A DNA stretch of 50,586 bases, filler included, from Jimgerdemannia flammicorona (lineage: Eukaryota): assembly GCA_003990765.1 (NCBI GenBank). It is 2 parts of 2 records of this genome, joined end to end, with 100 filler letters (N's around TTAATTAATTAA, not from the genome) between each part and the next. Parts side by side here need not be neighbours in the genome. Positions count along the whole stretch, not along the records: positions 25,347 to 50,586 come from RBNJ01000863.1; 1 more part is not named here. The stretch is one strand, 5' to 3'. The position numbers and the translations under genes are program-made. Each line of letters starts with the position of its first letter. Position 1 is the stretch's first letter. Below the pieces are notes generated by a model. That model did not search any database. It was not told where the DNA came from and saw only the letters and a list, made by a program, of their open reading frames with translations. Of the stretch, positions 7,874 to 50,586 are shown piece by piece.

Positions 7874-7946
7874 GGGCCTATGGCCAAATGGATAAGGCGC
7901 CTGACTACGAATCAGGAGATTCCAGGTTCGACCCCTGGTAGGCTCG
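7874..7946 (+). tRNA. tRNA-Arg (anticodon ACG)
   Basis: 73 nt; acceptor stem GGGCCTA/TAGGCTC, anticodon arm CCTGA-CTACGAA-TCAGG, T-loop GGTTCGAC; T-run Pol III terminator just downstream. Confidence 0.97.
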
Positions 7947-17130: not shown

Positions 17131-18362
17131 TGAGCGGCAATTAACGAATCAACAGTTGACATTTGTTTATATCCTTTTTTCAGTTCACGAAACATCGGAG
17201 GTAGAGAAGCTGTTGGAAAGGCGTATAGAGCAGATACTTTATGACGAGAAAGGTATCTGCGAGTAATGCCGGTTGTGATGAGTATTTTAATCATATTTGA
17301 TATTCCGTTTGCAAGGATAATGGAAACAGCAGGATGCACATACTCCCAACGCACGTGAAACAGCGCTCGTCGTATACATTCTCGAGTAGCGAGTATCGAC
17401 GCAGCAGGCTCTTTTACAAACCGCCAATAGTTCCGCGGTAAAATGCAGCATGCTGATTCGGCTACGGATTGCGAGGGCGAACGTGATGCGGACCACGGAA
17501 ACAAACGTGATCCTGAACTTCTCTCACGTCCCATTTGCAAGTGAGGACAAGAACTACTCATTGAATGTTGGGGACGTATTTTTGGAAAGGCGCATCGAAC
17601 AGATATTTTATGACGAGAAAGGTATCTGTGCGTAATGTCGGTTGTGATGGATACTTTAATCGTATTTCATATTCCGTTCGCAAGGGTAATGGAAACAGCA
17701 GGATACACATACTCCCAACACACGTGAAAAAATAGCCCTCGTCGCACACATTCTTGAGCAGCGAGTATCGACGCAGCAGATTCTTTTACAAACCGCCAAT
17801 AGTTCCGCGATGAAATGCAGCATGCTGATTTCGACTACAGGTTGTGGAGGGCGCGGATCACGAAAACAAACGTGATCCTGAACTTTTCTCACGTCCCATT
17901 TGCAAATGAGGACAAGAATTGCTCATTGAATGTTGGATATGTATTTGTTGAGCGGCAATTAACGGATGCACGGTTGACGTTTATTTATATCCTTTTTCAG
18001 TCCACGAAACATCGGAGATGGAGAAGCTGTTGGAAAGGCGTATCAAGCAGATACTTTATGACGAGAAAGGTATCTGCGCGTAATGCCGGTTGTGATGGGT
18101 ATTCTAATCGCGTTTGATTTTTCGTTCGCAAGGATAATAGAAACAGCACGATATACATACTCGCAACGCACGTGAAACGACGCTCGTCGCATACATTCTC
18201 GAGCAGCGAGTATCGACGCAGCAGACCCTTTTTACAAACCGCCAATAGTTCCGCCAAGTGCGCGCGGTGAAATGCTGCATGCTGACTTCGACTACGGGTT
18301 GCGGAGAGCGAACACGATGTGGACCACGGAAAAAAAAAAAAAAAAAAACGTGATCCTGGACT
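17131..18362 (+). repeat. Tandem triplication of a ~450-bp unit resembling decayed exon-intron sequence
   Basis: Anchor TTGGAAAGGCG at 17213, 17582 and 18030 (periods 369 and 448). Shared blocks TATGACGAGAAAGGTATCTG, GCGAGTATCGACGCAGCAG, TTACAAACCGCCAATAGTTCCGC. Copies diverge and contain stops. Confidence 0.9.
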
Positions 18363-19159
18363 TGGATCCATCGGGGATGCTTGTGACGTCGTCGCTCCTA
18401 CCGTCGAGCAAAACGAGCATGGAGCTGTTCTCCGTGTCCCCGCCTAGCCATTCCGCTCGCGTGCTCTATTCATTGTCAATTTGAATGGTTTCTTCCCGAA
18501 GACGACGGATGTTCTCCTGGAGCACACGAGGTAGGTTATGCCCTTCAACGCCTCCAAGCATACGCTTCTGTCGTGTCATCAATTGGACTTCACAAGTGGT
18601 GGTATGGGCCAGTCATCAGTTTACACCGGCCAAGGAAGCTCATGAGGAACATCGACGCGTTCGTGGATACCTCTCAACATGACATTGCTTTCATTTACGA
18701 CATCTCCCCGAACAACAATTGTCGTCCTGGACATCCTCGTAAATCGAAAACAACTCACAATATAAGGTGCATGATGAAATGAGGGAACCAGCAACCGTCG
18801 GCGCGAGAGAGAAGCATTTTCGTCGAATTGCTTTGGAAACTACGAATTCAGGGTTGGCTTCCACGATTGTGCTTGCTTTTTCTCGACCAACGGGCGCGAT
18901 CTTCCCGTCCGCGTTGTCCGGTTATATTCTTATATTCCTGGCGGTTACGTTTCATCGACTTCTCGTGTGCGCGAACCCATTTTGCCAAAAAAAAAAACGC
19001 ATCATGCATGAATGCTTTACGGCGCAACGTTGAAACCGTTCTTGCTAGCCAGTGGAGCACTACATCGTGTTACAACGTGCCCAGGGCCCCTTCAAAACTA
19101 GAAAAGGATAGCGACACAACTTCATTCCCTTCAAGTCACCTGCAAAAAGCGATCCTAAA

Positions 19160-19232
19160 CGAGCCTACCAGGGGTCGAACCTGGAATCTCCTGATTCGTA
19201 GTCAGGCGCCTTATCCATTTGGCCATAGGCCC
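19160..19232 (-). tRNA. tRNA-Arg (anticodon ACG), second identical copy
   Basis: Exact reverse complement of 7874-7946. Confidence 0.97.
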
Positions 19233-19648
19233 ATTTCTTATTTGTGAAATTATATAAATATATATAGAATATTAGGAATCCCTAGAGAGGGATTGCGTCA
19301 AAAAGGAATTTTGCATCTGTATGCAATGAAAGGAAAGGCCGCGTACACATTGGCCGACCATTGGCCATTATTCTCGAGCTGGCAGAGTTATGGAAATACT
19401 TGGAGCGGTCGACTTGAAAGTATTACATGCATACCGGCATTCAAATGAAGAAATTCTTATTAAAAGCACTTCGAAGATGTTATTGAGTACAGAATTTCCC
19501 ACTTGCCAATGGCGACATTCCTACTACCTAAATCCCCACGAGAAGCACAGTGGAGGAAAAGGTTCTGAGCTTTCTCGATCCAACGAATGAACCTGTCCAA
19601 TATATATATTCTTCGGCACATTTGCTCGACCACCGTTCCCAAACCCCA

Positions 19649-25246: not shown

Positions 25247-25346
25247 NNNNNNNNNNNNNNNNNNNNNNNNNNNNNNNNNNNNNNNNNNNNTTAATTAATT
25301 AANNNNNNNNNNNNNNNNNNNNNNNNNNNNNNNNNNNNNNNNNNNN
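25247..25346. other. Artificial contig-joining spacer
   Basis: 44 N + TTAATTAATTAA (stops in all six frames, 25291-25302) + 44 N = exactly 100 nt. Confidence 0.95.
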
Positions 25347-26012
25347 GGATATGGAGGAGGAGGATATAGAGGAAAGCGGTTCGGAATATATGGAGGAAGA
25401 TGGTTCGGAATATGAGAAGGAGGAGGATCAGTTGGTTTATAGCGATGAAGAGGAGGATCAGTTGGTTTATAGCGATGAAGAGTAAGATCTATTCACACCG
25501 GTAAGTTCTTTATTTTCCTGATTTACTTCCTATTTATTTCCGATTTCATTTTGATTTCTGATTCCTAATTATGTTTCTGTTTGTTTATTCTAAATATATA
25601 TCTTAGATGTGTAATATATTTTTTTTGGTGCCTTGTAGCTTAAAGGCGGATTAAAGATGGGTCTGTATCAGGTTAAATATGGGTCAGGGTCGGGTCACGT
25701 ATATTTCTCAGGTCGGGTCATGTATATTTCTCAGGTCGGGTTATGTATATTTCTTGGGTTGGGTTAAAGATGGGTTACATATAATTCCGAGTCAGGTTAA
25801 AGACGGATGACGTACGTTTCCAGGTCGGGTTAAAGATGGGTGACGTAAAATTCCGGGTCGGGTTAAAGATGGGTGACGTATTATTCCGGGTTGGGTTAAA
25901 GACGGGTGATATATTATTCCGGGTCAGGTTAAAGATGGGTGATGTCTAATTCCAGGTTGGCTGTTTTACGGGTCAGGTTTTGGGTTAATCGGGTCGGGTT
26001 TGCGGAGCACTA
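25347..26012 (+). mobile_element. Right end of a hAT-like DNA transposon
   Basis: Acidic ORF tail (EEDQLVYSDEEEDQLVYSDEE*, TAA 25483-25485), then ~10 subterminal repeats of CGGGTCGGGTTAAAGATGGGT-like (~25650-26000). The terminus reads TAGTGCTCCGCAAACCCGACCCG on the minus strand; gypsy protease sequence follows at 26013. Confidence 0.6.
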
Positions 26013-29000
26013 TACACAAGCTACCCTCCTTGGCAAAATCCAAGAAGTCTCCATCAAGATAGGAGGAGCTACCATCCCAGTAGATGTGATTGTTACAAGT
26101 GCTACTAACTATGACATCCTCATTGACAATCAATAGCTTTACAAGGCCAAGGCCATCATTGACCTCAATGTCCAGAAGATGCAGATCAACTATAGAGAAA
26201 GAAAGATACAAGTCTCTATCAATGTCCACAAAGGAGTTCTACCAGACATGGAGGAAGGAGATGAAGAAGACACAAAGATCTTCATGTACTCAGTGAATAA
26301 GAACAAGAATAAGGACAGATGAGCAGTGGTACAATAAGATCATTGATGGCTATGCCCCTCAAAGAAGATACCCCCATGATACTAGGATGTACTGCTCTGA
26401 ACACCTGAATGACTGCTGGTCCTATATTAGTGAAGTCAGGAAAATCCATCAACAGAAATATGAGCAAGAAGCCACTGAAGCAAAAAGGAAAGCCAAAAAA
26501 GATGACCAGCCTCCAGAACTTCAAGCTGATAGTGATGATAAGGAGGAACAAGAATCAGACATCACCCTTAAGGTCAAGAAGTTTCACTCTAAAACCAAGA
26601 TCTCAGAATATAAGACTGAAGGAGCCATAGGAATGGACCTTGCCAGTATTCAAGATGTTACCCTTGAACCACAGACCACTATTCTACTTGGCACTAGAAT
26701 TGGAGTCAAGCTGTCAGAAAATTATACCAGAAAACCATACCAGAATTATCAAGACCAGGAGCAGTCTGGTCAAAAGTGAAATCTCAGTTAAAGGAGAAGT
26801 AATTGACCCTGATTACACTGGTGAGATCTTCTTTATAGTCAGGAATCACAACCCCACCACCCCATTCAAAGTCAAGAAGCATGACAGGATTGGCCAGATG
26901 CTGATCCATGAAGTCAAGAAGCCTAAGATCATTGAAGCCATCAAACTCATCAAGACCAAGAGAGGAGAACAAGGCTTTGGATCTACTGAAAGAGGAGCCT
27001 ATGCCGCCACCAAGATTACTGAACTTGAGCATAAGAAAGATAAGGACCAGAACAAGCACACATATACCATTGGAGAAAACTTTCCTCTGGAGAAACAACT
27101 TCTCAAGATCCTGCACCAGAACAAAGGAGTACTTACTACAGACTTTAGGGATATCCACAATCAAGAACCCAAGTACTACTACAAAGTTGATACTGGTGAT
27201 ACCAAGCCCATCTACCAGAAAGCCAGACCCATACCACCTGCCTACAGAGAATGGCTGCAAGCAGAACTCAAGGAAATGGAAGAAGCCAGAATTATCAAGC
27301 AAGCTATCAGCCCCTGGGCTTCACCCATTGTCTTGCCCTGAAGAAAGGAAGCAAGCCTGGAGAGTTTGTACCAAGACTCTGCATTAACTACAGGAAGCTC
27401 AATGCCATCACTAAGAAGGATAGGCAGCTCTTGCCAAATATTCAAGAAATCCTTACCACCCTTAGAAGTGAAGCCAAATACTACACCACCTTGGATCTGT
27501 TCTCAGGCTTCCATCAGATTGGTCTCACTCAAGATACCAGTGAGAAATCAGCCTTAATCATACCTAACACCACCTATATCTACCTGCAAATGCTATTTGG
27601 AATGTGCAATGCCCCAGCAAGTTTTCAGCGAATGATGAACAGAGTCTTCAGTAATGAGATTGGAAAATGGCTCTTTGTCTATGTTGATGATGTGATCATC
27701 TTCAGCAACACTGTACAGAAATATATCAATCACATACAGCTAGCCCTCAAGAAGCTCAAGGAGTATGGTCTCTATATCAAGCCCAAGAAATATAAGTTTG
27801 TAGCTCAAGAAATCACCTACCTAGGACACCTCATCAACCAGACTGAAATCTACACAGACCCTATGAATATTGAGGCTATTGCAGCCTACCCAAGACCCAG
27901 AACAACTACAGAAGTCTATGTCTTCCTTGGACTGGCCAGCTACTACAGAAGATTTATCAAAGGATACTCCAATATTACAGCACCTATCTATGAGCTACTA
28001 AAGAAGGAGACCAAATTCAAATGGACCAAAGAGTACCAAGAAACCTTCAATGAACTCAAGATCAGGTTGACTCAAGCACCTATCCTCAGAAGACCAGACT
28101 GGAACCTAGAATTCATCCTGCAGACAGATGCGAGTGCTATAGGACTTAGAGCAGTCCTAGCTCAGAAAAAAGATGGATATGAATATATCATCTCCTATGC
28201 AAGCCGAGGTACCTGTAGAGCAGAACAGAACTACGAGTCATGCAAGCTTGAATGCTTAGCAGTAGTTTGGGCAGTAGATAAGTTCCACTACTATCTAGCT
28301 GGAAAATACTTCACCATTCAAACAGACTATTCTGCTCTTGCCTGACTATTCCACACTCTGAACCCCAAAGGAATATATGCTAGATGGATCTACAGACTGC
28401 AAGAGTATAACTGTACTGTCAAGTACTACTCAGGAAAGACCAATACCAATGCCAATGTACTCTCAAGGATACCCTGAAACACCCCCATCAAAACTATTCA
28501 ACATGAATAAGGAGCTATACTATGGATTAATTAGCTACCTTAGGCAGCAGAAGATGCCCAACCATCTTGAACCCTGGACAATCACTATTATCAACCAGAC
28601 TTGGAAACAGTTTGAACTAGACAACACTACACTCAGAAAAGGAGGAAAGCTAATAATATCTAAATACAAAAAGTATCAAATAATGAAGGAAGTATACAAG
28701 CAAGGACACTTAGGAGGAACCAATACATATGACAAGACAAGAAGAACTATATGGTGGCCCAAGATAGAAGAAGACCTGCACCAATTTGTCAAAGAGTGTG
28801 ACAAGTACCAAAAACAGAAATAAGATCAGCAAAACCAGGTACCCGGGTCATCAATAATTGAGCCTATCTCCTTCTACCACATTGCAATGGATATCATTGG
28901 ACCACTACCAGTAACACTATCAGGAAACTGCTATATTATAGTTATTGTAAACCTCTTCACTAAATGGATAGAGGCAGGAGCATTACAAGAAGTCAATGTC

Positions 29001-29640
29001 CTCTCTATAGCTGACTTCCTGTACTGAGAAATCATCTGCTGCTACAAAATACCAAAGCAAATCACAACAGACCATGGAACAGAATTTGTCAATGGATTCT
29101 ATGAGATAATATATCAGAAATACAAGATCCAGTACATCAAGACCACTATGTACCACCCTCAAGGAAATAGACAGATAGAGAGAACCAACAAGACCCTCAA
29201 GAATATCCTAGCAAAGATCTCAGAGATATATGAGAATTGGGATAATTATCTCTCAACTATCCTCTCTATCCTACAAGACATATAGTCACAGAGTACACAC
29301 TTTACCCTAAGAGAGCTGCTCTTCGGAGAAGAAGATTCTGATGGAACCTTAGCCACAAATCTAGACCTAACTTGGAGACAGATTGATGCAGAAATCTGGA
29401 GACTATACCAAATCAGGAAGTAGGCTGAAGATTACATCACCAAGTCACAAGCACTGACAAAGAAGAATGTGGAAAAGAATCACAAGGCCCTAGAACTCAT
29501 CCAAATCAGAGAAAAGGTTCTACTATATTGAAATATAGTAGAAGCCTCATGGTCATGAAAACTGGAGCCCAAATGAGAAAAACCCTTCTACATGTAAGAT
29601 ATCAAGAGAACCACCTTCTGGCTTAGAAAATTCTCAAGGA
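26013..29640 (+). mobile_element. Decayed Ty3/gypsy LTR retrotransposon pol: PR (partial)-dUTPase-RT-RNaseH-integrase
   Basis: PR tail (NYDILIDNQ*); dUTPase motifs; RT SPWASPIV / RLCINYRKLN / LDLFSGFHQI / YVDD; RNase H LQTDAS, KLECLAVVWA, TIQTDY; integrase IAMDIIGPLP, ITTDHGTEF, YHPQGN..IER; GPY/F-like tail. Many stops and frameshifts; no LTR seen. Confidence 0.95.
26561..26990 (+). pseudogene. dUTPase domain inside the gypsy pol, frameshifted
   Basis: All five trimeric dUTPase motifs: GAIGMDL, RSSL, VIDPDYTGEI, DRIGQ, RGEQGFGST. Frameshift at a small ATACCAGAA duplication near 26723-26745. Confidence 0.9.
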
Positions 29641-29798
29641 TACATTAAAAACAAACTGTAGGGAATTGCGCGTCATTGGTCCTAATCTCGATAGTTGGAC
29701 GAACTGACAAGGGATACATCAAATTCACCGGTAGTCACGTGCTATATGCAAATAACAAGCATAACAATGTTTGAGAATCATATCCATTTGCCTCTATT

Positions 29799-30912: not shown

Positions 30913-30946
<34 letters not shown>

Positions 30947-45192: not shown

Positions 45193-45859
45193 GAATAGTA
45201 GCTGAGAGTGATGTAATGGCTAATGTGATGGGCTCGCGAGAAGCAGCACGCGGATTGTCGGAGACGAAAGTTTAGGTGGGTCGGAGGTGAAAGGGGGAGA
45301 GAGTGGGACAAGGAGAAGCCAAGAACAAACAAGAGACACACATGGCCTGTAGCTCTTAAAAGTTGGCTGTGCTGACATCACGAAACCCTGCCTATGTTGG
45401 TTCGCTTTCATGTTTAACACGACAGCCAATGTCCAACAAAAACCCCGATCTCTCGTTGCGGTGCGTGTTACCTTGCCAAATTGGGAAATTGGCTTTACCA
45501 CTCAGCCATCGCCCAACGAAATTGTTTTATTATAATTATAATCCACACCCATTGAATTCATCAACCACCCGTTCGATAATCTATATAATTAGTCCACCAC
45601 CGCTGTTGCCACCAAAAAATGAATTTCCCATAAGGTTTCACCTACCTAAACAATAGTCACGGCATCTCTGATAAAGTCATTAATTGACACATTCGCCATA
45701 TCTCTGACACTTGCGCCAGCGAGTGTAACGCCCTGTGGTGGCGGCTTCTGCACAAGTCAAAAGCGAGCGGGAGTTAGGCGCGGGTCCTGCCGGACTGAGA
45801 CAGCTGTTTAGGAACTGCGGCGTGGATAGGGAGTGTGGCAAAACGGTATTGTTAATGTA

Positions 45860-46448
45860 CAGTGTACCCAACCTATAAACCTGAAGGAATAGAATATTAT
45901 AAAGAAGAAGATATCAAAAACAAAATCCATAGAATGATTCTTTAATTGATTTATTATAATTCTATAGATTTAGACCTTTATGTAGCTCTTCTTTCTATTA
46001 AGCTTATTTTATTTTATTTTATTATTTTTTTTATTTTATTTTATTTTTTTTTATTTTTTTTTTTATTCTATTAGACTATGACCAAAGTCCCAAGTTACTC
46101 AAAAAGGAAATCACTGTATAAATTTTATAATACTATATAAATTTATAATATAATAATAATAATTAGTATTTATCATTTATCTTTATCTGTCTATTTTGAG
46201 ATATATTAAATAATAATTAAGAACTTATTATCAATTTATTTATTTATATTTATATTTTATATATTATAAATTTAATAATTAGAATAATTTTTTTTTTTTT
46301 TATATTTAAAAGATATTTTAGTATATTTATAAATAGTTAATAATTTAAAAAATAAGTCAAATATCTTAATTATTATTACTATTTTATTAGAAACTCTTTA
46401 AAATTACTAAACTCTTATAAAATACTATATAAAGACTAATATATATAT
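45860..46448. mobile_element. Extremely AT-rich decayed element, possibly a Tc1/mariner/pogo-type end
   Basis: TA followed by CAGTGTACCC at 45858-45869 coincides with the shift to very AT-rich, CpG-free sequence. No second TIR found. Confidence 0.35.
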
Positions 46449-48346
46449 TGTAACAGTAACCTTAGAATAATGACATTAATACAGGAGATAGTCTTTTCTT
46501 GCAAGTCACTAGATTGGAGTACAAGAAGATCATATAGTATATAAGATGAGTAATGATGACCAACTATAAGTCATTGTGATCACAGTATAGATATCTTGAG
46601 AAATATAAAAGAAGGATCAAGAAACTGCAGTAGCAGTAACTAACAAGACCCACCAATCCCAAAATAGCTCAAAGACTTACTATAAACAAAATACCTACTG
46701 CTCACCAAACCTCAAGATCAAAGAACTATTAAGGTACCTTAGTTGAAGAAAGGATGTTCTAAGATATCAGAAGAGTCATAAGGACTTACTCAAGAAGGAC
46801 TTCTAGTATCAATCTGAGTACTAGTGATCCTTATTATTATATTCTCTACTGCCATAAAATGGAAATAAGGATCACCATTACTATCAAATACCTCCAAATG
46901 TAGCAGGAGTATAAAATAGGAAACCTTCTCTGTTGGGAGTTTTCACCTCAAGAGCTATAAGATATTACTTCCATAGATATATATGAAACAAGGACAGCTA
47001 AGAAGATCTATCAAATCTTCAGACATATACTATAGTTGATCCCCAACTTAGAGTATGTTAGAGTCTCAGACTTCAGAGATCTATCAGCCCACCATATTAA
47101 TACACTAGAAGCCAGGGTGGCTATAGAAGCTCAGTCTACTATTACTCTTAATAATGATGAAGTAGAAGACTTCTGGCATTCCATCCTCTAGGAAAAACCA
47201 GACCAATTCCTGCAAGAATTGATCTCAGTATTCCAAGGCCCAAGCATCCAGATTAGACCTCTCCAAGAGCTCACATTTGTCCCCTATTTTATAGAAGAGA
47301 ATCTTATAGACTGGAGAGTTCCAGACCTCCTTATTCCCACTGCTACTGAATATGATGACATCATCAGTAATGACATCATCCTGCATAATATATACAAGAT
47401 ACATGATATATACAAAACATGTGATCTATATGATGACAATGAATTCACAGACCTTATCTTCTTTAAAGACATTCTGACCTCTAATGAGAATGAAGCCTCT
47501 ATAGTCTTAAACATTCTGCTCTAAAGTCCTTTAGTGATACTGAATTATGTCAGCACTAGTATTCTGATGTGATACTGAATTATTCCAGCACCATTTTTCT
47601 GTATTACTGAAATTATACTAGTATTCTGATCTTGTATAACTATTTATGTCAACCCTAGAACTTAGCAGTTTTTCCTGTTCTGGCATTTTATTTTAATTAT
47701 TGAAATTTATATTTAGCTTTATATCTTAGCAATCATTGAATTATATTTGATATCAGTTTCTCTCAGTGCAATATATACACTTCCTTGCAAGCAATCTAAG
47801 AGACAACAAGATAGTTTAAAGATAAGAAGTTTGAGGACTATAAGACCTTGGGAAGACACTCCAATAAGAACTTACTTATAATAAACTTGAGTTAGTTTAA
47901 GAGATATACCTTGAAGAGAATCTGATATATTTGAAGAACTCAGTGACCACTATGTGACAACTTGGTGTCCATTGGCTGGTAATTCAAGACAAATCCCTCA
48001 CTTTCAAGCTAAAAAATGAATAACCTCCACAATAACTACTCTGACTACAAGAGTTACCCCTGTAAGAATTCAAGATAAGATAGAAATGTATCTCTTCACA
48101 TTCTATAGATATACTACTAAAGAGTCAATTTTGACCTTCATTGAAGACTTTGAACAATTTACCACCATATGAGCTCTTGGTGTAGATGCACAATTGGCCC
48201 TTCTACCAGTCAGCCTCAGAGGACCTACTAGAGACAAGTTCAATGCAGCCACTATTGCTGATAATAGTACAGCCAAACTTACCAATATAAAGGCCTTCCT
48301 CAGAACAACATACTATATCAAAGAGATTAAGCAAGCTCTCAAGGAT
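46449..48346 (+). mobile_element. Decayed LTR retrotransposon A: ~1.5-kb LTR-like segment, PBS-like site and gag start
   Basis: TGTAACA (46449) ... TGTGACA (47953-47959) imperfect inverted termini, then ACT-TGG PBS-like site (47963). Gag-like relic ESILTFIEDFEQF..*ALGVDAQLALLPVSLRGPTRDKF (~48070-48346). CpG-free. Confidence 0.6.
46859..47524 (+). pseudogene. Unknown-family ORF relic inside LTR-like segment A
   Basis: Single frame with 4 internal TAG/TAA stops; homologous to 49255-49815. Confidence 0.7.
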
Positions 48347-48934
48347 CACGTCTCTTTCCAGTACCATTCAGGTTACACAACCTTTGGAAGGCACTTTCAA
48401 CATCGTTTTCAGCAAAAGGAGACTAACAACATGGCAACCGACAGACAACCTGAGGTGTGTACTGGGCAGGGCGGCCCTAGCACTTTCGACTGGCAGCAGG
48501 TGGGGAGGGGGCCAGGCCTGGGGGGAGGTATGAGGGGCCTGCTGGTGGGTGGACATAGAAGGGGTGGAGGAGGTGGGGGAGGATCAGGATCTGGGAGGGC
48601 AAGCTTCGCAGAGATGGTGAAGGGGAGACAGCAGGCATCAGGGCTGGAGGGCTGGCTAAAGAAGAGTAAGGAGACCGAGAAGGCAATGGTGCCGGGGGGT
48701 GCGGCCCTTGGAAGGGGGGCAGTAGAGCTGTGGGAGTAGTGGCTGGGGGGGGTGTGACTGCTGATGGTGTTGGGACTGTTGATCTGGAAAAAAATCCAGA
48801 TGTGATGGCTGATGGCGAGGCTGAGCAGCTGAGGCTTAGAAGGCAAGGGGACTTAGTGGATGGTGTAACAGATCTGGCGGTAGCTCCATTACTCAAGAAA
48901 TCGATTTTGGCATTCGTGGTCACACTATGCTTCC
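48347..48934 (+). mobile_element. 5' end of a probable non-LTR retrotransposon (LINE ORF1-like)
   Basis: Abrupt switch to GC-rich sequence; ATG 48431 MATDRQPEV..., Gly-rich stretch then ASFAEMVKG, resembling the SF/YAxxV motif common in LINE ORF1 N-termini. Cut off at 48934. Confidence 0.45.
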
Positions 48935-48951
48935 TGTAAGTGCACAACCTC

Positions 48952-49063
48952 CAAGCCACCGAAATTACACGTCACCCTCTGAACAAGCCACCGAAATTAC
49001 ACATCACCCTCTGAACAAGCCACTGAAATCACACGCGACCTCCAAACAAATCTGGAAATCACC
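48952..49063 (+). repeat. 32-bp tandem repeat, 3-3.5 copies
   Basis: CAAGCCACCGAAATTACAC(G/A)TCACCCTCTGAA repeated with increasing divergence. Confidence 0.9.
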
Positions 49064-49254
49064 TGCTTGATCATGAAGCTGAGTCAAACCGAAGTCATAG
49101 CGCATAAAGCTAAGTCAATATGAAGTCACGGAACACAAGATCTACACAAACAGAACCTTACCAATCAGGACCAAATGCATATATACTGAGCACCGAGACG
49201 TGTCGAATCAGAGAACTAAAACAAACAACAACTACAACTTCCAAACACACAAAT

Positions 49255-49815
49255 ATGACCACTGAGATCTACAACCGCATCCGCGCTGACATTTGGAATG
49301 CCATTATCAACCGAGCTACACCCCCTCTGCCCCTTATGAATATCCATAGCCTGGCCCCCCTCTACTTCGTGGAAGCCTGATGGAATGCCCTGAACATGCT
49401 TAGCGAGGCCAACCGAATCGGACAAATCTCAAGCTACTATCAGATCGGCCGCCTCTTGGAAGACATGGTCGAACACCACCACGATACAGACATGACCCAG
49501 ATGTCTCAATACCAGAAGCTCATCGCCCGCAAACATCGAGAACTCTTCTATGAGTACAACACCTTTATTCCCCACCTCCGAGTTACTACTAGCGAAATGA
49601 TTGCTACCCTGTCCTATGGCCAAATCGATGACATGATACAAGAAATCAACCACAAGTACCTCGAGTATGTCGAAACCACAGACAGAATCTTCCCGCACCC
49701 CGATGACCATATCCTGCAAATGCCTCAAGTCGAATACGCCATGAAGGACATCTATGATATAATCCACTTCGAGAAGACGAAGCAGAAGACAATGATCCCT
49801 CTGACGCCGACATGA
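49255..49815 (+). pseudogene. Unknown-family ORF1 of segment B (one in-frame TGA at 49378-49380)
   Basis: MTTEIYNRIRADIWNAII...VEA*WNALNMLSEANRIGQISSYYQIGRLL...IPLTPT in one frame. Confidence 0.7.
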
Positions 49816-50351
49816 CCTCTAGCCAAGGATCTCTGCCAACCCTGATCACTCTGTCAACCTTGCCGATGAACTTATAACAGTTCATAACTACATACAAGAC
49901 TTATTGGGACAATGACCACTGGCATGAATACCAACCTGCATTCACTCCCGACTACTTCAACTATAATGAAGAGACCGGAGAACACAACCTGTACCTCCAG
50001 ACAACCCTCGAGATTGAACCAACAATGCCACCACCTGAGTACAAGCAACTTGAACCACAGCCGCCAGCTTACTACAACCCTGCGACTCATAGTGCTGTAA
50101 CCTATAGAAGGTACGCAGATAGCGAATCCGATGAAAGCGAAGACAGTACACCCATCCTTCGCCCAGCAACACCTTACCCAGCATACGAAACAGATGATGC
50201 TATCCTGTGGAATGGAGATGAAGTCCCAATGTATTACTACCTCAGCCAACAAGGAGAAGTAATCCGCGAACCACTCTTCCTAGATGACTACTTCATCAGA
50301 GATGATACAATCGATGGTGATGTTATCGAGGACTACCCAGATAGTGCCTAA
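49812..50351 (+). pseudogene. Acidic Pro/Tyr-rich ORF2 of segment B (one in-frame TAA at 49875-49877)
   Basis: ATG overlaps the ORF1 stop (ATGA); same frame as the 50025-50351 ORF; contains PPEY and PPAY. Confidence 0.6.
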
Positions 50352-50586
50352 AACCTATAAATAGTTTAGCAGTCATAGTATAGTTAGATTAGCCTTGTAT
50401 GACGTGACTGTGAACTGACTCAGCAGTCAGATGATCTCTTGACATGTCAGATCACACTTGTACTACGTGACTGCATTCCGACTCAGCAAGGCACTTAGTG
50501 CTACATCCATATCTAGTATAGTCCAGATAGCCCCTCACTAGTATAAATACCCCCTCCCCCAGACCTCAGAATCTCAGACTCGAACA

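Follow-up and report, generated by a model that had tools for sequence, protein, structure and literature searches.

Two orphan protein families tied to decayed, LTR-like repeats in Jimgerdemannia flammicorona

A stretch of 50,586 nucleotides (nt) from the genome of Jimgerdemannia flammicorona (assembly GCA_003990765.1) was analyzed, which is called the window in the following; its positions 25,347-50,586 come from RBNJ01000863.1. The end of the window consists of dead copies of two different repeat families (copies A and B). They lie head to tail on the + strand, and each of them opens with a terminal segment (segments A and B) carrying a sense-strand orphan gene. The two open reading frames (ORFs), ORF-A and ORF-B, represent two orphan protein families tied to decayed repeats, and both window copies are dead; this is the secure result of the analysis. 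The terminal segments resemble long terminal repeats (LTRs). A location of both genes within LTRs, in the U3 (unique 3') part, is plausible from the order of sequence signals and is the best single reading, held at somewhat less than an even chance. For the signals of the two copies, positions 46400-50586 (4.2 kb) were examined. The two genes are located as follows:

46691-47524 (+): ORF-A pseudogene, 277 codons and a natural TAA, based on end-to-end alignment with the proteins P0006, P0007 and P0008.
49255-50351 (+): ORF-B pseudogene, about 365 codons, natural stop at 50349, based on matches to the proteins P0002 and P0003.

For ORF-A, relatives were sought in a set of 5.8 billion proteins, with the stops of the query read as X. 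Three intact relatives were found, P0006 (247 aa), P0007 (271 aa) and P0008 (215 aa), which share 58-64% identity with the window copy over 100% of the query and 79-80% with each other. In the window the frame is interrupted by six internal stops (46730, 46760, 46901, 46958, 47033 and 47189), and the four that fall within the alignment stand opposite W or Q of the relatives. The start codon is lost as well: at the beginning of P0007, the window reads ATA instead of ATG. The number of six stops compares with 18.4 ± 4.0 in shuffled sequences, none of 2000 shuffles having as few.

ORF-B is covered by two relatives. P0002 (128 aa) matches 49255-49638 with 91% identity. P0003 (247 aa, 62% identity) is colinear with the window through a frameshift, its residues 1-68 corresponding to 49597-49800 and its residues 60-246 to 49773-50345 in the next frame. 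The lesions are a TGA at 49378, where P0002 has R, a one-base frameshift near 49775-49800, and a TAA at 49875, where P0003 has Q. A 139-aa ORF at 49396-49815 is part of ORF-B. The coding frames of A and B contain 1-6 stops, compared with 7-18 in shuffles. PPxY late-domain motifs were considered for ORF-B and rejected, since PPPEY and PPAYY of the window are PLSEY and PLAYY in P0003 and thus not conserved.

An earlier sequence-only reading of this DNA had pointed to two peptides encoded at 46895-47107 and 49423-49635. Both translations were reproduced exactly, as was their ungapped identity of 18/71. That the peptides belong to two genuine protein-coding genes is borne out by the intact relatives and the stop-poor frames. 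The limits given for them were too narrow, as the peptides of 71 residues are pieces of ORFs of 277 and about 365 codons.

Judged by its sequence, copy A was inactivated through C>T/G>A hypermutation, in the course of which all CpG were lost. The block concerned is:

45845-48348 (no strand): CpG-free, hypermutated block with segment A and the preceding AT-rich tract; zero CpG between 45844 and 48349.

Within 46449-48345 the GC content is 34-38% and no CpG occurs. The relatives agree with one another in 176 alignment columns, and the window differs from them in 51. These differences are derivable by C>T or G>A changes alone in 46 cases, and none of the 51 by the reverse changes. Since the relatives are intact, the changes run in one direction and CpG is lost, copy A is the hypermutated pseudogene of a real gene. 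Copy B is a pseudogene too, with two nonsense changes and a frameshift, and is not hypermutated (59 CpG). With its one-directional C>T/G>A change, its complete CpG loss and a TpA/ApT ratio of 0.99 (about 0.45 in neighbouring host genes), copy A is similar to fungal repeats altered by repeat-induced point mutation (RIP) or RIP-like hypermutation. However, a value of (CpA+TpG)/(ApC+GpT) below about 1.03 is the usual mark of classical, CpA-directed RIP, and the value of copy A is 1.23, above this limit. Besides RIP-like change, CpG-biased mutation or methylation-driven deamination would also account for the pattern. Directly 5' of segment A and within the same CpG-free block, positions 46000-46448 form a tract of 11% GC with short T/A-rich repeats, which may be an older, fully degraded repeat.

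Beyond the window, the relatives are five predicted proteins only ('jgi' and 'ena' sources), found on contigs of 900-1625 bp from environmental assemblies. The view that neither ORF contains a described domain stood up, as Pfam, the PDB, a set of 1.84 billion representative proteins and the ESM Atlas name no family. In Pfam, the ORFs of the A/B region gave sub-threshold matches only (E ≥ 0.042). The PDB sequence search returned no match for query A5 and one at E=1.4 for query A3. An exhaustive search of the 1.84 billion representatives with the N-terminus of B yielded only P0002, P0003 and P0004; the last is a repeat protein and was rejected as a spurious relative. No match at E ≤ 1 was obtained from Rfam over 45500-50586. 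Among 24 sequencing runs listed, 20 hold part of 48900-50586, with a best share of 0.25; the shares are small, come from 14 studies and are mostly labelled soil metagenome, no RNA run is among those listed, and nothing was concluded from them.

Structure-based searches gave a similar picture. For P0003 and P0007 the ESM Atlas contained no usable neighbour (feature matches of P0007 at most 0.83; structure rows with a template modelling score, TM, of at most 0.33), and its own models of these two proteins have a predicted local distance difference test score (pLDDT) of 0.39 and 0.35. AlphaFold2 reached a pLDDT of 34.7 for P0007, given three sequences, and of 46.2 when the N-terminus of B was folded alone; both models are all-helical at low confidence. 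The N-terminal part of the A and B proteins is predicted to be helical. The A protein has an Arg-rich start. Counted in blocks of 30 residues, its net charge is +4 in both the first and the second block and -7 in both the second-last and the last. Blocks of this size in the C-terminal half of B have net charges from -1 to -8. The C-terminal tails of both families are long, acidic and rich in aromatic residues, and none of the models folds them confidently. A role as transactivator or anti-silencing factor, as proposed in the sequence-only reading, has no support beyond this tail.

The further features of the region are:

46449-47959 (+): segment A, LTR-like terminal segment, starting with TGTAACAG and ending with ...CTATGTGACA; read directly, a putative LTR.
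46538-46544 (+): TATATAA, 147 nt 5' of the start of ORF-A; pattern scan, consensus match only.
47534-47601 (+): 35-nt tandem duplication, 1.9 copies, directly 3' of ORF-A; Tandem Repeats Finder, score 101.
47772-47885 (+): second TATA-like site TATATAC (47772) and the only AATAAA of the region (47880); pattern scan, putative promoter and poly(A) signal.
47963-47979 (+): putative primer-binding site (PBS) TGGTGTCCATTGGCTGG, 3 nt past the ...GACA end; read directly.
48020-48346 (+): second ORF remnant, called gag in the sequence-only reading; 1 stop in 109 codons versus 6.8 ± 2.5, with 12 of 2000 shuffles having as few.
48346-48934 (no strand): G-rich, CpG-poor spacer between A and B; GC 56.5%, 13 CpG, no Pfam match.
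48935-50586 (+): segment B, LTR-like terminal segment, starting with TGTAAGTG and running past the end of the window; the strand composition flips to A+C-rich.
48952-49035 (+): 32-nt tandem array, 2.6 copies, 5' of ORF-B; repeat search.
49180-49186 (+): TATATAC, 69 nt 5' of the start of ORF-B; pattern scan.
50383-50488 (+): 43-nt motif, two copies 63 nt apart with 74% identity, 3' of ORF-B; repeat search.
50542-50548 (+): TATAAAT, 38 nt from the end of the window; pattern scan.

The landmarks on which the sequence-only reading was built are present, namely TGTAA at 46449 and 48935, TGTGACA followed by ACT and TGGTGTCC at 47953-47970, and TATAAAT at 50542. At the start of segment A, near 46434, the GC content steps up from 9% to 30%. 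The termini of this segment, TGTAACA at the start and TGTGACA at the end, were chosen by eye. The second ORF remnant breaks off at 48346, where the hypermutation stops, and about 109 N-terminal codons survive. In the spacer that follows, the cumulative G-C climbs from 48450 to 48883. The spacer continues the reading frame of the second ORF remnant, so that an apparent 181-aa ORF (48194-48739) with a Gly-rich run arises.

According to the LTR reading, segments A and B would each be the 5' LTR of an LTR retrotransposon, long (about 1.5 kb or more) and with a gene inside U3. They share one layout, in which a TATA-like site precedes the ORF, and a duplicated, enhancer-like motif and then a second TATA follow it. 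Copy A continues with AATAAA and the ...CA end, after which come a PBS-like site that opens with TGG and the beginning of a second ORF, so that U3 would be followed by R (repeat), U5 (unique 5'), PBS and gag. Each LTR would be complete in itself, with promoter, ORF and poly(A) signal. Solo LTRs as well as the two LTRs of an element could then express the protein, with no need for a genomic RNA begun at the second TATA. As a guess, the protein may be an element-encoded accessory or adaptor protein which recruits a host factor via its acidic, aromatic-rich tail.

Several observations argue for this arrangement. Both segments begin with TGTAA beside DNA of quite different composition. The ...TGTGACA end of A lies 3 nt 5' of a TGG, and the only AATAAA is found between the second TATA and that end. 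The duplicated motifs sit between each ORF and the TATA downstream of it, and a second stop-poor frame opens about 60 nt past the PBS-like site. The sense strand of segment B is A-rich and C-rich, like that of a Ty3/gypsy pol fragment located at 26-29.7 kb of the window, which points to a mobile character.

A number of findings weigh against the LTR reading. Terminal repetition is the property that defines an LTR, and no second copy of segment A or B exists in the window. Scans for related loci gave 596 and 190 pattern matches in metagenome contigs, none of which was confirmed, and none was confirmed in viral and prokaryote genome contigs. TGTAA is not distinctive alone, because it occurs five times in the 4.2 kb examined, and TATA-like strings are common in this AT-rich region (12 occurrences). 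The only tRNA genes of the window are two for tRNA-Arg(ACG), and the PBS-like site, itself hypermutated, shows no complementarity to their 3' ends. Self-priming was considered as well and rejected, as no convincing inverted repeat was found between this site and the predicted transcript start. The putative gag remnant has no Pfam match, no homologue among the longer proteins of the set of 5.8 billion and no matching PDB chain. Segments A and B show no DNA similarity, as had been stated earlier: blastn of 46449-48345 against 48935-50586 gave matches of 10-15 nt only (E ≥ 1.3). This extends to the supposedly equivalent flanks, which align at shuffle level even when transitions are tolerated (z=1.05 and -1.17). 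As the protein similarity of A and B is borderline, the argument from a shared architecture comes to rest on few features chosen by eye. Finally, models as poor as those obtained leave the proposed function of the protein without direct support.

These points can be read in other ways. The ORFs could be the first genes of elements of another class (DIRS/Ngaro-like, like ORF1 of long interspersed nuclear elements (LINEs), or a DNA transposon) or fast-evolving host orphan pseudogenes in a repeat-rich region, the LTR-like strings being coincidental. We consider this unlikely. It would agree with the result that no tool tied a retroelement domain to either ORF, with relatives known only as isolated proteins on short contigs (900-1625 bp), and with the frequency of TATA and TGTAA strings in the region. 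On the other hand, the order of signals in A is that of U3-R-U5-PBS, and hypermutation together with pseudogenisation is typical of repeats. LINE ORF1 proteins bind nucleic acid, and the acidic C-terminal tail is unlike them. Alternatively, the genes may be internal, in the 5' leader of their elements, upstream of gag and downstream of a short LTR and PBS like ORF1 of the plant Ogre elements, both window copies being 5'-truncated in the leader. Three points would suit such an internal gene: each ORF has its own upstream TATA-like site, the 5' boundaries of A and B were drawn from nothing more than composition and a common pentamer, and fungal elements do not usually have LTRs as long as 1.5 kb or more. 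The reading would need two independent truncations, 242 and 320 nt 5' of the ORF starts, and would offer no explanation for the series of TATA, AATAAA, ...CA and TGG that separates ORF-A from the second ORF. That a short LTR and a PBS precede the ORF is also unlikely because in copy B, which is not hypermutated, the sole TGG of 48937-49254 is found at 49053, 5' of the TATA at 49180. Copy B thus offers no PBS of the Ogre type between an LTR end and the ORF, as long as its 5' limit is right. Overall, an internal position seems improbable.

Another alternative, which is very improbable, places each ORF at the 3' side of its element, as an accessory gene in env position. A short 3' LTR would come next, with a length of about 430 bp (A, about 47535-47959; B, from about 50397 on), and the frame that opens at 48020 would be unrelated flank. 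The duplicated motifs and the TATA just past each ORF do resemble a compact U3, and the second ORF remnant matches nothing in Pfam, the protein set or the PDB. However, a purine tract is missing between the ORF stop and every candidate TG start, an argument against placing a 3' LTR boundary behind the ORF. Pfam scans detected no pol or integrase sequence 5' of either ORF, and a TGG 3 nt past the ...CA end with a stop-poor frame behind it suits a 5' LTR better.

A separate question is whether ORF-A and ORF-B are members of one family, as the sequence-only reading had assumed. The peptide match was reproduced, but the statistics for a single family are borderline and HMMER finds no link. In a Smith-Waterman alignment the window copies of A and B score 60, compared with 34.6 ± 5.4 in shuffles, one of 500 being as high. 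When the ORFs are cut at their exact limits, the alignment scores 55, and 20 of 1000 shuffles are as high. With hhalign, the A family matches the N-terminus of B with P=0.003 over 104 columns, in the register of the alignment proposed earlier. This register recurs with intact relatives, about residues 17-123 of A against 4-108 of B for P0006 and P0007, and the later part of it for P0008. The positions of the identities do not vary within either family (Y-x-I-G-x-L-L, A-[KR]-K, F and I-P-x-L). For the pair P0006 and P0002 just 4 of 1000 shuffles are as high. Near the C-terminus, both proteins contain the acidic motif RDD-[VT]-I-x-[DG]-D-[VL]-I.

The same comparisons leave room for a chance resemblance between two unrelated orphan ORFs that happen to be neighbours, which would be compatible with any reading of the repeat class. 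The hhalign probability for A and B is only 10%. In a tblastn search of the window with A, B is the best non-self match, but with E=0.31. The intact relatives of A, when compared with B, score below the mutated window copy; for six pairs, 72, 4, 491, 39, 251 and 127 of 1000 shuffles were as high, and those with B of the window itself are at shuffle level (72, 491 and 251). When 1272 six-frame ORFs of the window were searched with a hidden Markov model (HMM) of either family, the other family was not among the best 12 (E of the weakest of the 12, 9.3-12). The C-terminal halves are dissimilar (534 of 1000 shuffles as high) and alike only in the 12-residue acidic motif (hhalign P=0.023). Taken together, chance is given a little better than an even probability, and homology of A and B is borderline from these sequence comparisons, at a little under even. 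We regard as unlikely the fullest version of the LTR reading, in which a lineage of fungal LTR retrotransposons would possess LTRs that are complete genes (ORFs of 277-365 codons), ORF-A and ORF-B being anciently diverged members of one LTR-borne family which was kept across element families without shared DNA similarity.

Outside the A/B region, the window contains further repeats. The Ty3/gypsy-type pol fragment is located at 25990-29660 (+) and contains an inserted dUTPase (Pfam dUTPase, RVT_1, RT_RNaseH_2 and Integrase_H2C2). It is cut at both ends, has no LTRs and 8 CpG in 3.65 kb, and no relative of ORF-A or ORF-B lies alongside. It was therefore rejected as the body of either element. 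Just 5' of it, and 3' of P-type ATPase exons (23.5-24.75 kb), three features lie at about 25250-25990: N-masked sequence (about 25.25-25.35 kb), a 30-nt unit that is duplicated perfectly (25420-25479) and a tandem array of 33-nt units (25640-25986). The tRNA-Arg(ACG) genes form a near-identical pair in opposite orientation, 11 kb apart (7874-7946, +; 19159-19233, -). Between them, at 17176-18232, a 240-nt unit occurs three times (67-90% identity; spacing 369 and 448 nt) with an interleaved 104-nt repeat, and the ORFs found there have no Pfam match. An unbroken A run of about 30 nt lies at about 30915-30945 between two minus-strand ORFs.

Accessory genes embedded in U3 are known from retroviruses, such as sag of mouse mammary tumour virus, the nef overlap of human and simian immunodeficiency viruses (HIV/SIV) and the bel/bet overlap of foamy viruses. 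ORF-A and ORF-B are similar to these in being sense ORFs in the 5' part of a putative terminal repeat, upstream of the promoter of the genomic RNA and with a promoter-like site of their own. In contrast, they occur in a fungal-type host, show no sequence or fold similarity to the retroviral genes, and belong to segments that are putative LTRs. The retroviral genes overlap the repeat from the internal region, whereas ORF-A and ORF-B would sit wholly within it. ORF1 of the plant Ogre elements is an extra ORF inside the internal region and follows the PBS; ORF-A precedes the PBS-like site.

Extra ORFs outside gag-pol are also carried by LTR retrotransposons of bdelloid rotifers, according to one report (PMC5408684). 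In Botrytis, brtn of Boty/BcGypsy1 is such an extra ORF (PMC8365987, citing Zhao et al. 2011), which is antisense by the title of the cited paper, unlike the sense ORFs described here. ORF-A and ORF-B resemble brtn, Ogre ORF1 and the rotifer ORFs as orphan, element-borne ORFs without a known domain; in those elements gag and pol are present in addition. A description of a sense ORF inside a fungal LTR was not found in the literature searched, subscription papers aside. Judged by that title, the nearest fungal case found is the antisense brtn of BcGypsy1 (PMC8365987). If the ORFs do lie inside LTRs, they would be a fungal counterpart of the U3-embedded retroviral genes. Solo LTRs, which are usually taken for inert scars or for promoters, could then code for proteins, and both the annotation of such repeats and the judgement of their effects on the host would change.

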